Source: an archaeon
GTDB taxonomy: Archaea > Iainarchaeota > Iainarchaeia > Iainarchaeales > Iainarchaeaceae
Reading direction: 5' to 3'
DNA: 56,871 nucleotides
NCBI GenBank assembly: GCA_024653905.1
Contig: JANLGZ010000070.1
Coordinates: 1 to 56,871, forward strand
Each line of letters opens with the position of its first letter. Position 1 is the first letter of the stretch. Both the position numbers and the translations under genes were made by a program. A model generated the notes under the pieces. That model ran no database searches, was not told the DNA's origin, and saw nothing but the letters and a program-made list of their open reading frames with translations. Shown here one piece after another: positions 5,077 through 35,782 of the stretch.

Positions 5077-5799
5077 TCACAACAACATGTGAGCTAAGTA
5101 AAATTTAATCTCACTTTTCCCGATGCTGAAACTTACTTTCATTGCTGAATCGCTTTTAAGCTCCAGTTTTATTATTGATTCGGGATCTGCTTCCTTAACA
5201 ATGTTCTGTAAATAAGTCAGAGAATATTTTGATGTTACTTTTGCAGATGATTTTACTTTTACTTTTTTTGCATGTGCAGAATCAGCCCTTACCTTTCCTG
5301 CGGTTCCTTGCGATTCCAAAAAAAACTTTCCATTATCTACTTTAAGCACAATACTTGAACTGAATAAGGATGTATCTTTCAGGGCTTCTTTCAAAATTTT
5401 TGCGTTGATTTCAACAACCGCATCATATTCTGATTCAGGAAGTTTCAAATCTTCCTCAGAAACATCAATCAAAGGAAGAGTAAACGAACGATCTAATTCT
5501 CCTTTGAAATCTATTTTGAATTCTGAATCATTCAAATCAATAATTATTTTATCAGTCTGCATTGCCCTTGAAATAATTTTATTTAACTCTGTAAGGTTTA
5601 TACCCACAAAAGAAGGTTCTATTGAAAACGAATCAAAAACACTCTTGTCAATTGAATAATCAACCAAAACTATCTGACTTGGATCAATGGCCCTTAAATG
5701 AATCCCTTTATCATTAAACCTGAAATTACCCTCAGGAATAAACGAAGCAATAGCCTCTATACCAGATTTTAGAAAATCAACCTTGTTTAATTCAATCAT
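5077..5799 (-). CDS. pcn: DNA polymerase sliding clamp PCNA (paralog 1)
   Basis: 240 aa. FNDKGIHLRAIDPSQIVLVDYSI and VGINLTELNKIISRA follow the PCNA pattern. The two-domain length is typical. Confidence 0.9.
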   Translation of the reverse strand: MIELNKVDFLKSGIEAIASFIPEGNFRFNDKGIHLRAIDPSQIVLVDYSIDKSVFDSFSIEPSFVGINLTELNKIISRAMQTDKIIIDLNDSEFKIDFKGELDRSFTLPLIDVSEEDLKLPESEYDAVVEINAKILKEALKDTSLFSSSIVLKVDNGKFFLESQGTAGKVRADSAHAKKVKVKSSAKVTSKYSLTYLQNIVKEADPESIIKLELKSDSAMKVSFSIGKSEIKFYLAHMLL

Positions 5800-5865
5800 T
5801 TTAAGCCCCTAAAATGTATTGATGCACTATATTGGTTTAAATCTTTTTGGCATCTAAACCAAAGT

Positions 5866-6318
5866 ATGATAAAGAAAATATATATAGGTTCAGACCATGC
5901 AGGCTATGAAACCAAAGAAGCACTGCAGAAATACCTAGCTAAAAAAGGTATTGAAACTATAGATCTTGGCACTCATGATAAGAAAAGAGTTGATTATCCT
6001 GATATTGCTGAGAAAGTTTCCCGAAAAGTTGCTAAGGATAAGGGCTCTTTTGGTTTGCTTGTTTGTGGAACTGGAATCGGCATGAATATTAGCGCAAACA
6101 AAATAAAGGGAATTAGAGCTGCAAACCCATATGATAATTACACCGCAAAAATGGCAAGACAACACAATGATGCTAATGTGATTTGTGTAGGCGGAAGAAC
6201 TTATGATTTGGTTAAAGCCAAAAAAATTCTCGGCGCTTTTTTGAAAGCAAAACCAAGCAAAGAAAAAAGGCACATTAATAGAATTAAGAAGATTTCTAAG
6301 ATTGAGAAAAAGAACTAA
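5866..6318 (+). CDS. rpiB: ribose-5-phosphate isomerase B (RpiB/LacAB family)
   Basis: 150 aa. IGSDHAGYETKEAL and LVCGTGIGMNISANKIKGIRAA motifs. Confidence 0.9.
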   Translation: MIKKIYIGSDHAGYETKEALQKYLAKKGIETIDLGTHDKKRVDYPDIAEKVSRKVAKDKGSFGLLVCGTGIGMNISANKIKGIRAANPYDNYTAKMARQHNDANVICVGGRTYDLVKAKKILGAFLKAKPSKEKRHINRIKKISKIEKKN

Positions 6319-10500: not shown

Positions 10501-11429
10501 TTCTTCTTTTTCAAAAATGCTTTTATTGCAGGCGCATATTGTTTCATTAGAGCTTCAAGTTCTTCAGGCGACATGTTTTTTGATGAAAGTGAACTCGCGA
10601 GTTTTGTAAGCTCCATTGGAAAAATGAATTTTGTTGATTTGCCTTCTCCTAATTTTTCAAGAGCCTGAATATAATAATAAGCAAGAGACTTATCATTCAG
10701 TTCCATTGTTGCTGCTTTTACAGCTTCAATTTCTGCTTGTTTAGCTTTTGCTCCTTCCATTCTAGCAAGTTTTTTTTGCACAGCTGCTTTTTGTTCGTGC
10801 ATTGCACTAATAACTGTTTTTGGAATCTGGATATCTTTTATTGCAACCTCTTCAATTTGAATACCCCACTTTTGAGCAAGCCTTTCAAGCTCAACTCTTA
10901 AATCCTTATTCAATTCTTCAATACTTGAAATTAATTCCGCAAGTGTCAAAGAACCGGCTTTATCCCTGATTAAACCAATAACAAAGTGTTCAGAAGCCTC
11001 GATATAATCCACAACCTCAATAACACTGTTTATCACAGATGCATTGTCCTTTCTGACCCTAAGATAAACAACCGCATCAATAGTAACCTCTACATTATCC
11101 TCGGTTACAATGTCCTGTTTTGGAATATCTATTGTTCTTGTTCTGGTATCCACAATAACCGCACTTTCAAGAGGAGGGATAATTACTGCCCAGCCAGGCC
11201 CAGCAACTCTTTTGACTTTTCCAAACCTAAATACAACAGCTCTTTCATAATCTTTCAGAGTAAGCAGGTAATCAAACCTTGCGAACAAAAAAAGTATTAT
11301 AAGTATAGGAATTATCCACAAAGCATTATCCGCAATAAACTGGAAATTATTAATAAGTACAAAAAGCACTGTTACAGCAAAAATGAACAATATTATGAAA
11401 ACAAAGAATTTCACGTTGTCTGACGGCAA
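10497..11429 (-). CDS. SPFH/band-7 (stomatin/prohibitin) domain protein
   Basis: 310 aa. N-terminal transmembrane segment, then YERAVVFRFGKVKRVAGPGWAVIIPPLESAVIVDTRTRTIDIPKQDIVTEDNVEVTIDAVVYLRV and a coiled-coil tail. Confidence 0.85.
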   Translation of the reverse strand: MPSDNVKFFVFIILFIFAVTVLFVLINNFQFIADNALWIIPILIILFLFARFDYLLTLKDYERAVVFRFGKVKRVAGPGWAVIIPPLESAVIVDTRTRTIDIPKQDIVTEDNVEVTIDAVVYLRVRKDNASVINSVIEVVDYIEASEHFVIGLIRDKAGSLTLAELISSIEELNKDLRVELERLAQKWGIQIEEVAIKDIQIPKTVISAMHEQKAAVQKKLARMEGAKAKQAEIEAVKAATMELNDKSLAYYYIQALEKLGEGKSTKFIFPMELTKLASSLSSKNMSPEELEALMKQYAPAIKAFLKKKN

Positions 11430-11514
11430 TTATGATCACTAAACCCTATTTAATTCTCTTTTATATATAAGGTTATATACAATTAATTCATTTAAATACA
11501 TAAGTGATGATCAA

Positions 11515-31906: not shown

Positions 31907-34900
31907 TTATCTTACATAACTAGGTTTGAACGCTTGAGTAGCTTGGCTTTTAAAAGCTTTATAAGCTTCAATAGTTTCTTGAGTTATAGAAGGAGTTGTT
32001 TTATTCAGAGCTTCCTCCAAATGAGAAAGTTTAATTTCTTTGGATTTGAAATTTGATTCTTTCATAGAAAGTAATGCCGCCTCTCTTATCAGACCTTCAA
32101 TATCAGCACCACTATAACCTTCAGTTTTTTGAGCAATCTCATTCAAATCAATATTGCTTGCTAAAGGAGTGTCTTTTGTATGAATTTCTAAAATAACTTT
32201 TCTTGCACCAAGGTCAGGAGCAGGAATATGAATAATTTTATCTATTCTGCCTGGACGCATTAGAGCAGGATCTATTAAATCAGGCCTGTTAGTAGCCGCA
32301 ACAAAAACAACTCCTTTAAGTTCCTCAACACCATCAAGCTCGGTTAAAAGCTGATTAACCATTCTTTCACCAACACCAGAACCATCTCCAGAACCCCTTC
32401 TTGAGGAGATAGCATCAAACTCATCAAAGAAAATAATAACAGGAGAAACCTGCCTAGCTCTTTGGAAAATTTTTCTAATACCTTTTTCACTGTTATGTGC
32501 AAAAATTCCGCCAAATCCTGCAACAAAATTTTGACATGGATCTACAGAAATATCATAAACATCACCAGAATAATTAACTTCATTTATTTCCTTCACCTTA
32601 TCCCAATAAATGTCCGCCTCAACAAGTTTCCACAACGAAGAATATTTTTCTTTTTGTATATCAACTACACACAGTGCTTCTCTGAGCTTCCGCACACCAA
32701 CCGAATGATTCTTAGGATAAGATCCAAAAGCACTTTCAAGAACCTCAGTTATTTTATAGTTGACCGGAATGACATTGCTACGAGACCATGCTTTTTCTTC
32801 AATATAACTTCCCACAAGAATATTTCTACGTGAATCGATAAAACCAATAGCCATAAACTTCCTGAAATTTTCAACACCAAACACCTGCACACCATAACTC
32901 ATAGTGCCATTCCACTCAAGCTTTTCTCTGCAACCTGCAACAATCCCCATTTTAAGGAAAAGATAAAGCAAATCATTTGCCAGATTTTTACTGACAGTAG
33001 AGGCTTCAATAACATATCTTCTCTCTGACCTTGTTATCGACCCATCACCACTGAAATAGCCCTTAAGGAAATTCTGAACCTGGATATTTGATGCAGCAAA
33101 CAAAAAACCAGGAATCCTTTTATTGAAAGCACCTGTTTTCAGCCCGAAAACCTTGTCAAGAACATGTTTGAAAATACATGAATTTACAATAATATTTGTT
33201 TCTGTTTTAGTGACCCCCAATCCTAAAGTTTGAAGAATCGTTAAGGTATCCTGTCTTATTTCAGGATTTGCATTTGTAATCCTCACAATGTCCCCATTAA
33301 AATCCCCCTCAGCAACAAAAAGCCCCAATATTCTGCACAAATCAGCATCAACCTTAAAGAAAATCGGAAGGTGACTCCTTGCCCCCTTAACTCCAATAGT
33401 TATTTTTGAAAAGTCCGGTTTGAATCCTGTTTTATCAATAAGCTCACTGAATTTTCCGGCATCAACAGAAAGATTTTTGCAAATTATATCAGCTATATAT
33501 TTTTTACTTACCCCCAAAGCCAGAGACACTTTGTCCAACCCATACTGTTTTTTTGCCAACTTCAGGTTTCCCGCAACATTTGAAAGCATATACCCTTTCC
33601 TGTCCCTGAAATGCTCAAACAAATTGAGTTCAGAAAAAGCAGTTGAAACATTAGGAATTCTTGATGGAATTGCAATCACGCTTTCTCCAGCAACAAGATT
33701 TTTCGTCGCCACAGACTCTATTTCAGACCCAACAAGTGAAAAGAGCGAATGCTTATCAGTGACTTTTATTCTCCTTCCTGTCTTTGTTTTGACTTCAAGC
33801 ATTTTGCCATTAAGAGGATGTTTTATATGACCTGTAATTTTGGAAAAAATCACCCTGCCATCAGAATCAAATGTGACAACCTGAACTCCAAGTTTTTCCT
33901 CAACAATCCGCCCTATTTTTTCCCTGTAAATATATTTGCCGTCAAACACCAAAAGTTCTTCATCATAAGGAAGGCTCTCGCCCACCCCCATTGAAATTAA
34001 TTGCGGACCTTTAATGCTGATAAAATTTGCTTCTGATTCTGTGGCAACTGCTTTAGCAAGCAAAGTTTTTCCAGTACCAGGAGGACCATAAAATAAAATT
34101 CCCCTTGGAGGTTTAATTCCCATTTTTTGAAAAACATCAGCATGTTTCAATGGCCATTCAATAGCCTGTTTTAATTCTTCTTTAACTTGTTCAAGGCCGC
34201 CAATCTGATCCCATTTAACATTAGGGACTTCAATTGCAACCTCTCTTAATGCAGAGGGCTGAACATCTTTCAAGGCTTCTAAAAAATCATCCTTGTTAAC
34301 TTCTAAACTTTCCAAAACCTCTGTAGGAATTGTTTCATCCTCAAGATTAATTTTCGGCAGGTATCTTCTCAAAGCTTTCATAGCAGACTCTTTTGCCAAA
34401 GCTTCTAAATCAGCACCAACAAAACCATGGGTTATAGAAGCAAGCCTATTCAAAAAAACATCTAATAATTTATTTTCAATTTCTTCCCTTTCACGCAAAG
34501 AAAGACTAGAAAAAAACTTAGTTTTAAATTGACCCGTGAGTTCTTGGAGTTTTAATGGCTCATTAATCTCTTCGAATTTTCTGAAAATTTCTAATTTACG
34601 CTCTGCTGAGATGATTTCTTTTTTCACTAAACCCAAAACTTCGGTTAAATGGGCAGAATCAAGAGGCGGAGCAAGCGGCATTCCTCTTGTGTGAATCTGG
34701 AAAATTTCCAAACGATCTTTTTTGGAAGGAACACCGATTTCAATTTCTCTGTCAAATCTTCCCGGTCTTCTCAGAGCTTCATCAATACTGTTTATCCTAT
34801 TAGTAGCACCAATAACAATTACTTGACCTCTTGCTTCCATACCATCCATGGCACTTAAAATCTGAGCAACAACTCTTCTTTCAACTTCCCCAACAACTTC

Positions 34901-35782
34901 GTCTCTCTTTGGAGCAATAGCATCAATTTCATCAAAGAAAATAATAGAAGGAGCATTCTTCTCAGCTTCCTTAAAAACTTCCCTGATTCTTTCCTCAGCT
35001 TCACCAACAAACTTACTCATAATACTCGGAGAACTGATTGAAATGAAATGCGCCTGAGTTTCATTCGCAACTGCTTTAGCAAGCAAAGTTTTTCCAGTAC
35101 CAGGAGGACCATAAAGCAAAACTCCTTTTGGCGGACTAATACCTAACTTTCTGAAAATTTCAGGATGCTTCATCGGAAGCTCAATCATTTCCCTGACCTT
35201 TTGCACCTGTTCTCCTAAACCGCCAATATCCTCATAAGCAATTCTTGGAATCCCTGCAAGCGAATCCTTAACTGGTTCTTCTTTCAAAATAAACTGAGTA
35301 AAATCAGTTACTTTTACAACGCCGCGAGGATTAGTATCAATAACCTGATAAATAAAACCAGAACCAAAAACACTAATTAAAACTCTGTCGCCTTTATGCA
35401 AAGGTCTTCCAATAAAATTTTTCTTAAGAATCCGATCATATCCCGAAGCAATAATTCTAACTTCTTGAGTCGGAGCAAGAACAACTCTTTTTGCTTCTTC
35501 AAATTCAGCCTTTTTCACCACTACTTTTTCCCCAAGACCAACCCCTGCATTTCTCCTGATTAAATTATCCATTCTAATAAGACCTTTGCCCTCATCTTCC
35601 TGTCGGGCCGGCCATATAACCGCCGCAGTCTTCTGAGAACCATTAATCTCAACAATATCTCCAGAGGTTACCCCTAAATCTTCCTTGGTCTGTCTATCAA
35701 GAGTAATAATGTTCCTGCCAACATGACTAGGATCAGGATCTTCAACCCTTAGACTAATCTGTTTTTTTGATTTTTCAACCAT
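31907..35782 (-). CDS. cdc48: CDC48/VCP-like AAA+ ATPase, intein-containing precursor
   Basis: 1291 aa. N-domain, then D1 ([27 protein letters not shown]) and D2 ([27 protein letters not shown]). The D2 sequence VGE/SEK is interrupted by 495 aa. Confidence 0.9.
32492..33976 (-). mobile_element. intein with LAGLIDADG homing endonuclease domain, in CDC48 D2
   Basis: The N-extein ends ...[11 protein letters not shown]. The intein starts [13 protein letters not shown] (Ser1). Block B is [17 protein letters not shown] motifs are [10 protein letters not shown] and [12 protein letters not shown]. It ends [23 protein letters not shown], followed by +1 Ser (SEKGIRKIF). Removal restores the canonical [12 protein letters not shown]. 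Coordinates were hand-counted (aa 603-1097). Confidence 0.85.

Follow-up and report, generated by a model that had tools for sequence, protein, structure and literature searches.

The DNA analysed here (the window) comprises positions 1-56,871 of contig JANLGZ010000070.1 from assembly GCA_024653905.1, which represents a DPANN archaeon of the Iainarchaeaceae, Iainarchaeota. This genome, referred to below as G000, is 1.15 Mb in size, assembled into 116 contigs and 92% complete. The minus strand of the window encodes the precursor of a CDC48/VAT ATPase, whose reading frame is interrupted in the second AAA module (D2) by an insert of 495 residues. We consider this insert, with a probability of about 0.9, to be a true class-1 intein that is capable of splicing, carries a LAGLIDADG homing endonuclease and is located in D2 of the single CDC48/VAT of G000. 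Its splicing and DNA cleavage activities we infer from conserved residues and the predicted fold. The features of the gene and of the intein are given in Table 1.

Table 1. The CDC48/VAT precursor gene of G000 and its intein. Residue numbers without further indication are those of the intein. Invariance was scored on an alignment of 38 sequences of diverse intein homologues; junction counts refer to 119 intein homologues with both junctions, drawn from the best 120 of at least 215 database proteins.
Feature	Positions in the window	Strand	Evidence or remarks
CDC48/VAT precursor gene	31907..35782	-	List of open reading frames; 1291 codons plus stop; TIGR01243 and Pfam matches
N-extein (precursor 1-602), comprising the N domain, D1 and the part of D2 through pore loop 1	33977..35782	-	Unbroken alignment with intein-free relatives up to GE
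Predicted intein, 495 residues (precursor 603-1097): two-motif LAGLIDADG endonuclease embedded in a Hint splicing domain, with accessory helical regions	32492..33976	-	Pfam, NCBIfam, PI-PkoII, AlphaFold2 model
Codon AGC of Ser1, the block A nucleophile in the N-O acyl shift	33974..33976	-	Invariant in 38; Ser1 in 119 of 119
Block B T-x-x-H, Thr73-Asp-Lys-His76 (VTDKH at 72-76)	33749..33760	-	T73 and H76 invariant in 38
LAGLIDADG motif 1, residues 217-226, catalytic Glu223	33299..33328	-	G218, A222 and G224 invariant, E223 in at least 90%; aligns to LLGYYVSEG of PI-PkoII
Block D lysine, Lys286 in NKRIP	33119..33121	-	K286 and P289 invariant; aligned to NKRIP of PI-PkoII
LAGLIDADG motif 2, residues 303-314, catalytic Asp311	33035..33070	-	G310, D311 and G312 invariant in 38
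Block F, residues 473-487, with Asp475	32516..32560	-	D475, N483 and F484 invariant; aligned to VYDLSVEDNENFLVG of PI-PkoII
Block G, Phe-Ala-His494-Asn495 (FAHN at 492-495): penultimate His and cyclising terminal Asn	32492..32503	-	H494 and N495 invariant
Ser+1 codon AGT, first residue of the C-extein, transesterification nucleophile	32489..32491	-	Ser in 118 of 119 homologues, Thr in one
C-extein, SEKGIRKIF... to stop: remainder of D2, including Walker B, sensor 1, Arg fingers and lid	31907..32491	-	Joins the N-extein in intein-free relatives

The 1291-residue product scored 1021.7 bits against the NCBIfam model TIGR01243 'CDC48 family AAA ATPase', for which the cutoff is 802.65 bits. Pfam matches in the same reading frame included CDC48_N, CDC48_2, two AAA domains, of which the D2 one was split, and two AAA_lid_3 domains. 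These profiles identify the host protein as a CDC48/VAT/p97 double-ring AAA+ unfoldase, with an N domain followed by two AAA modules (D1 and D2) with lids. No second CDC48 was found in a search of the available 1.15 Mb of the 92% complete G000 genome, the sole other match being a 398-residue single-AAA protein on contig C104. The idea that the interrupted gene is a dispensable copy backed by a second CDC48 was rejected on this basis. The only CDC48 of G000 carries the intein, and its precursor therefore has to splice in order to yield the unfoldase.

The insert is located between Glu602 and Ser1098 of the precursor, directly behind pore loop 1 of D2. Its borders, located by script, read ISMGVGE↓SLPYDEELL at the N-junction and GFGGIFAHN↓SEKGIRKIF at the C-junction (arrows mark the insertion points here and below), so that the GESE motif of the host supplies Ser+1. 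The Pfam model Intein_splicing matched residues 20-495 (E 7.8e-22), LAGLIDADG_3 matched in two stretches (E 8.4e-21), and the NCBIfam models TIGR01445 (intein_Nterm) and TIGR01443 (intein_Cterm) both exceeded their cutoffs. By these profile scores, the similarity to intein families is far beyond chance. The first-pass annotation of this DNA had described an interruption of a 1291-residue CDC48 by 495 residues within the VGE/SEK segment of D2, and its coordinates and length proved to be exact to the base. The hallmarks it had listed (Ser1, VTDKH, two LAGLIDADG motifs, a terminal His-Asn and a +1 Ser) were all recovered. It had also considered that blocks A, B, F and G might be lacking or the junctions miscounted; the blocks are present and the junctions restore the conserved extein sequence.

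The combination of Ser1 with the block F Asp, without a WCT-type signature, assigns the element to the class-1 inteins. Splicing would begin with an N-O acyl shift at Ser1, aided by Thr73 and His76 of block B. The resulting ester would be attacked by the hydroxyl of Ser+1 to give a branched intermediate, and cyclisation of Asn495, aided by His494 and Asp475, would release the intein. Through a final O-N shift, Glu and Ser would then be joined by an ordinary peptide bond, which leaves D2 intact. The Psp-GBD Pol intein, which served to establish how inteins splice, shares Ser1, the terminal His-Asn, Ser+1 and the all-oxygen chemistry with the G000 element but occupies another host and site. The description of Ser1/Ser+1 as the rarer chemistry in the first-pass annotation is thus correct insofar as such inteins are a minority, yet, with the Psp-GBD Pol intein among them, they are also a classic type.

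The G+C content was 0.36-0.39 for intein and exteins alike, and a foreign base composition of the intein was rejected accordingly. Two plus-strand open reading frames within the intein region, at 32462-32833 and 33420-33830, were taken as antisense noise.

The site was compared among the 23 species genomes from the family of G000. An intein with 64-92% identity occupied the D2 site in nine of them. Twelve, and one more with a run of Ns just downstream, possessed an uninterrupted D2 reading ...MWVGE SEKGIRKVFQRA. The protein sequence at the empty site of these twelve genomes, WVGE↓SEKGIRK(V/I)F, equals the predicted spliced product; at the DNA level, the junction region of the empty site in G020 reads ATGTGGGTTGGGGAA↓AGCGAAAAGGG. 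The empty alleles of the relatives are exact, and excision would therefore restore the native host sequence precisely. This agrees with the restoration of VGESEK expected in the first-pass annotation, which had proposed a check of related genomes for intein-free alleles. The insertion point corresponds to about E554↓S555 of human p97 (MWFGESE).

The codon of Ser+1 was AGY in all eight occupied family alleles (L001, L011-L017) and TCN in five of the 13 empty alleles (L020-L032), namely those of G005, G010, G013, G001 and G022. Co-conversion and target preference both fit this split. TCN may be a polymorphism that makes the homing site resistant, or it may reflect phylogeny only. The paralogous site in D1 reads SKFVGE↓AEE (window 35000-35010, minus strand), with Ala at +1. 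The same GE↓AEE was found in the close relatives whose D1 was read (P0001, P0005, P0018, and P0022); Ser occurs at this position in lineages with D1-site inteins. With Ala at +1, the intein therefore could not splice from the D1 site in G000.

A database search limited to the intein part (E ≤ 1e-3) revealed this intein family in at least 215 proteins, the best 120 of which were all AAA/CDC48 proteins. Named sources among these 120 included Diapherotrites, Woesearchaeota, Pacearchaeota, Aenigmarchaeota, Micrarchaeota, Nanoarchaeota, and Bathyarchaeota. The homologues with both junctions began mostly with SLPY.E and ended with AHN or VHN; 97 were inserted at the D2-type GE↓SE site, the other 22 at its D1 counterpart (...YGE/Q↓SE.N...). 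One protein, P0011, carried the family in D1 and D2 both. The phylum-wide scan of 215 species genomes from 79 genera (E ≤ 1e-60) detected the intein in 22 genomes and 16 genera. The database inteins of DPANN and other archaea at the GE↓SE site of CDC48 share with the G000 element the host gene, insertion point, Ser1...His-Asn↓Ser junctions and a size of about 493-503 residues; the latter differs from them in sequence and in the neighbouring -4 Trp to Gly change alone. Its closest relatives include the G021 intein (92% identity) and an uncharacterised GE↓SE intein in P0002, 'CDC48 family AAA ATPase [Candidatus Diapherotrites archaeon]' (76% identity). Proteins of this kind are labelled 'AAA+-type ATPase/intein/homing endonuclease' by the Joint Genome Institute (JGI).

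The family is thus widespread, annotated in databases and experimentally uncharacterised, and the G000 copy is an ordinary case of it. In view of these numbers, the CDC48 D2 allele, for which the first-pass annotation named no well-characterised precedent, is neither rare nor new, and CDC48 inteins are also mentioned in a published survey (PMC10710043). This survey, which contains the sole relevant statement in the literature searched, describes a weak similarity of a eukaryotic CDC48 intein to bacterial or archaeal inteins inserted at orthologous sites. The main text of PMC4760082 makes no mention of Cdc48, and the mention of an intein in PMC5498576 is unrelated to the CDC48 intein. The literature searched contained nothing specific on DPANN inteins or on AAA ATPase insertion sites.

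A second intein, of the Cys1 type and unrelated to the first, is present in D1 of many related CDC48 genes, at SIM↓C...HN↓SKFVGE. In several relatives this intein and the GE↓SE intein are separated by just six extein residues and flank the pore loop. Further sites in CDC48 genes of relatives were sensor 1 (HN↓TNRPD) and Walker B (HN↓CILFFDE). Related CDC48 genes with extra inteins were P0001, P0005, P0018, and P0022, as well as P0084, P0091, P0098, and P0099.

These comparisons make it extremely improbable that the insert is a Hint/LAGLIDADG domain which does not splice and persists in the mature protein, or that it arose as an artefact of assembly. Nothing was in favour of this alternative apart from the formal reservation of the first-pass annotation. 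Every nucleophile and helper residue is present and invariant, and the insert, next to the pore loop, interrupts D2 in its core beta-sheet region. The same in-frame insert was independently assembled in nine genomes of the family and in more than 200 database proteins, and the empty alleles are exact.

An AlphaFold2 model of the intein, built from the 38-sequence alignment, had a mean predicted local distance difference test score (pLDDT) of 93.3 and a predicted template modelling score (pTM) of 0.91. In a Foldseek comparison with the PDB, the top matches were all endonuclease-bearing inteins: PI-PkoII (E 4e-31, template modelling score (TM) 0.76), TliVMA, PI-PfuI, PhoVMA, and PI-SceI. Free-standing LAGLIDADG enzymes and mini-inteins followed lower in the ranking, and the Hint part of the model superposed on mini-inteins with a root mean square deviation of about 2 Å. 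PI-PkoII (2cw7) was also the closest solved protein by sequence (E 8.6e-28), with three collinear stretches that correspond to Hint-N, the endonuclease, and Hint-C. Residues 211-365 of the model display the alpha-beta-beta-alpha-beta-beta-alpha pseudo-dimeric fold, which was matched by I-DmoI, I-Tsp061I and the endonuclease domains of PI-PkoII, PI-PfuI, and PI-SceI. Both LAGLIDADG helices end in an acidic residue followed by Gly (VAE223-G and SGD311-G).

The freed 495-residue intein would thus be expected to cut empty CDC48 alleles across ...ATGTGGGTNGGNGAR↓AGYGARAARGG..., using Glu223 and Asp311. Repair of the cut allele from an occupied one would then copy the intein into it, which is the process of homing.

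Patterns of presence and absence were examined on a tree of the D2 exteins. Six changes were counted, at least three of which are forced by well-supported branches. Sister genomes with opposite states include G009 and G010 as well as G017 and G012, and the genus of G000 itself includes both occupied (G000 and G021) and empty alleles (G019, G020, and G022). Divergence was assessed by Nei-Gojobori estimates of synonymous substitutions per site (dS) and of the ratio of nonsynonymous to synonymous rates (dN/dS). The exteins of the congeneric genomes G007 and G008 share 96% nucleotide identity with a dS of 0.14, as compared to 72% and a dS of 2.45 for their inteins. Sliding windows along these two genes (L017 and L016, respectively) showed about 97% identity up to the N-junction; at the beginning of the C-extein, approximately 48 nucleotides were 75-78% identical, followed by 95-100% identity further on. 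This divergent stretch of the C-extein is therefore regarded as a co-conversion tract from an intein replacement. By this pattern of identities, the split of the hosts preceded the arrival of one of the two inteins through homing or gene conversion. Taken together, the comparisons support mobility of the intein family.

The G000 and G021 inteins differ with a dS of 0.48 and a dN/dS of 0.084 (0.085 in the endonuclease core); the respective values for the exteins are 0.65 and 0.154. Judged by these ratios, purifying selection acts on the entire element, on the nuclease as well. These values bear on the alternative that the intein splices but has an inactive endonuclease and is a fixed vertical passenger, kept since precise deletion is rare. 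The uniform divergence between G000 and G021 fits vertical descent, and endonuclease activity is not readable from sequence alone. Against this stand the intact and conserved catalytic acidic residues and block D lysine, the demonstrable mobility of the family in sister genera, and the low dN/dS of the endonuclease core, which is as low as that of the splicing domain and below that of the exteins; an inactive nuclease should drift. We therefore regard an inactive endonuclease as unlikely, and the G000 intein is probably still mobile. Recent horizontal acquisition by G000 was rejected, given the uniform divergence of intein and exteins from G021 and the lack of a flank anomaly. The data fit descent of the G000 and G021 inteins from a shared occupied ancestor. 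The recent or ongoing mobility proposed in the first-pass annotation accordingly finds support for the family, in its patchy occurrence, dN/dS values and replacement event, but the G000 copy itself fits vertical descent since the ancestor shared with G021.

One character of the host protein deviates from its relatives. In the assembled sequence, pore loop 1 of D2 lacks the aromatic residue expected of a CDC48 unfoldase: extein position -4 (precursor residue 599) is Gly in the sequence M-G-V-G, encoded by GGG at 33986-33988 of the minus strand. Trp (TGG) is present at this position in all 20 family genomes, and W, F or Y in all D2-site homologues. The GGG codon falls inside a run of Gs, ATGGGGGTGGGC. 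Either the substrate-gripping residue has truly been lost, or the assembly is wrong by a single base. It is one of two changes specific to G000 at otherwise invariant D2 columns. General decay of D2 was rejected, since two such changes lie within the range of 0-4 recorded in relatives.

A further alternative is that the intein has been co-opted as a conditional protein-splicing switch, which would control how the D2 pore loop of the single CDC48 matures. The site lies directly behind pore loop 1 of an essential single-copy gene in a reduced genome, and purifying selection extends over the entire element. The Ser1/Ser+1 chemistry is redox-insensitive, as opposed to the Cys1 type of the other four inteins of G000, and conditional splicing is documented for other archaeal inteins (PMC5790916 and PMC5238726). 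Under this interpretation, the unique -4 Trp to Gly change might tune splicing or D2 activity. Close relatives of the same genus and family, however, lack the intein at the identical host site, and a Cys pair or other feature that could sense conditions is not apparent. Selection on the endonuclease is expected from a selfish homing cycle but superfluous for a switch. We consider such a role highly improbable and prefer the interpretation of the element as a splicing intein with its own homing endonuclease.

Several observations weigh against this interpretation. Block F reads Gln/Asn-Phe in place of the His-Asn-Phe of many inteins; this variant is common to the closest solved inteins and is therefore not regarded as a defect. 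The divergence between G000 and G021 is uniform over intein and exteins and gives no sign of recent transfer into G000. Gly at extein -4, in place of the Trp of all relatives, might affect splicing or D2 function. Finally, the literature searched contained no experiment on splicing or cleavage by any member of the family.

Among characterised inteins, PI-PkoII (Thermococcus kodakarensis DNA polymerase intein 2; PDB 2cw7/2cw8) resembles the G000 element in its combination of Hint, two-motif LAGLIDADG and accessory domains as well as in the NKRIP block D and the xNF block F. It differs in its family B DNA polymerase host, its length of 537 residues and an identity of only about 22%. TliVMA and PhoVMA from archaeal V-type ATPase subunit A (PDB 7qss and 7qst; PMC8966425) are likewise associated with an endonuclease and located in the catalytic domain of a P-loop ATPase, and Foldseek matched them to the model with E 3e-22 and TM of 0.67-0.76. 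Their ATPase class and insertion site are different, and they possess Cys1 (crystallised as C1A mutants) in place of the Ser1 in G000. The inteins clustered in the AAA+ core of archaeal MCM (haloarchaeal MCM-a to MCM-d; PMC10643990) and RFC (PMC4760082) also hit conserved nucleotide-binding and pore motifs of ring ATPases. Several intein sites per gene are known from MCM and RFC, likewise from CDC48 of relatives, whereas the CDC48 of G000 has one occupied site. The hosts of the former are replication factors; that of the G000 intein is a protein unfoldase.

For annotation, these results imply that the gene encodes one CDC48 precursor with an intein and not an atypical ATPase of 1291 residues. 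The pore loop of an unfoldase is a further example of inteins in the functional core of ring ATPases. The family offers a clean natural data set on the homing cycle, with occupied and empty alleles within genera and one replacement with a co-conversion tract, and with paralogous sites in D1 and D2 that harbour related inteins. A Ser1/Ser+1 intein could also serve protein engineering as a cysteine-free splicing module. The current understanding of inteins is unchanged by the CDC48 intein of G000.

Two other insertions were observed in CDC48 genes. A helical insertion of about 60-70 residues in the D1 small subdomain (D1 lid) of the G000 protein follows RGMPLAPP (window ~34448-34672, minus strand). 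It aligns poorly even with the congeneric G021, and this segment is therefore considered fast-evolving. In the intein-free genomes G019 (L031, contig C13, ~11137-11489) and G001 (L032, contig C2, ~5563-5924), the D2 match is broken by about 350-360 nucleotides at position ~211 of the D2 fragment. This is below the typical length of an intein and may represent a lid insertion.

The G000 genome holds at least four more inteins, all with Cys1, which gives a total of at least five inteins in 1.15 Mb. IMP dehydrogenase (contig C96, L002) contains a LAGLIDADG intein at GPGAI↓C...HN↓CTTR, and a HerA/DUF87 ATPase (contig C35, L003) contains a mini-intein in its P-loop, at GGGK↓C...HN↓S. The others are located on contigs C34 (L004/L005) and C71 (L006), in a DHH/RecJ-like protein and in aRF1 (at GGQ↓C), respectively.

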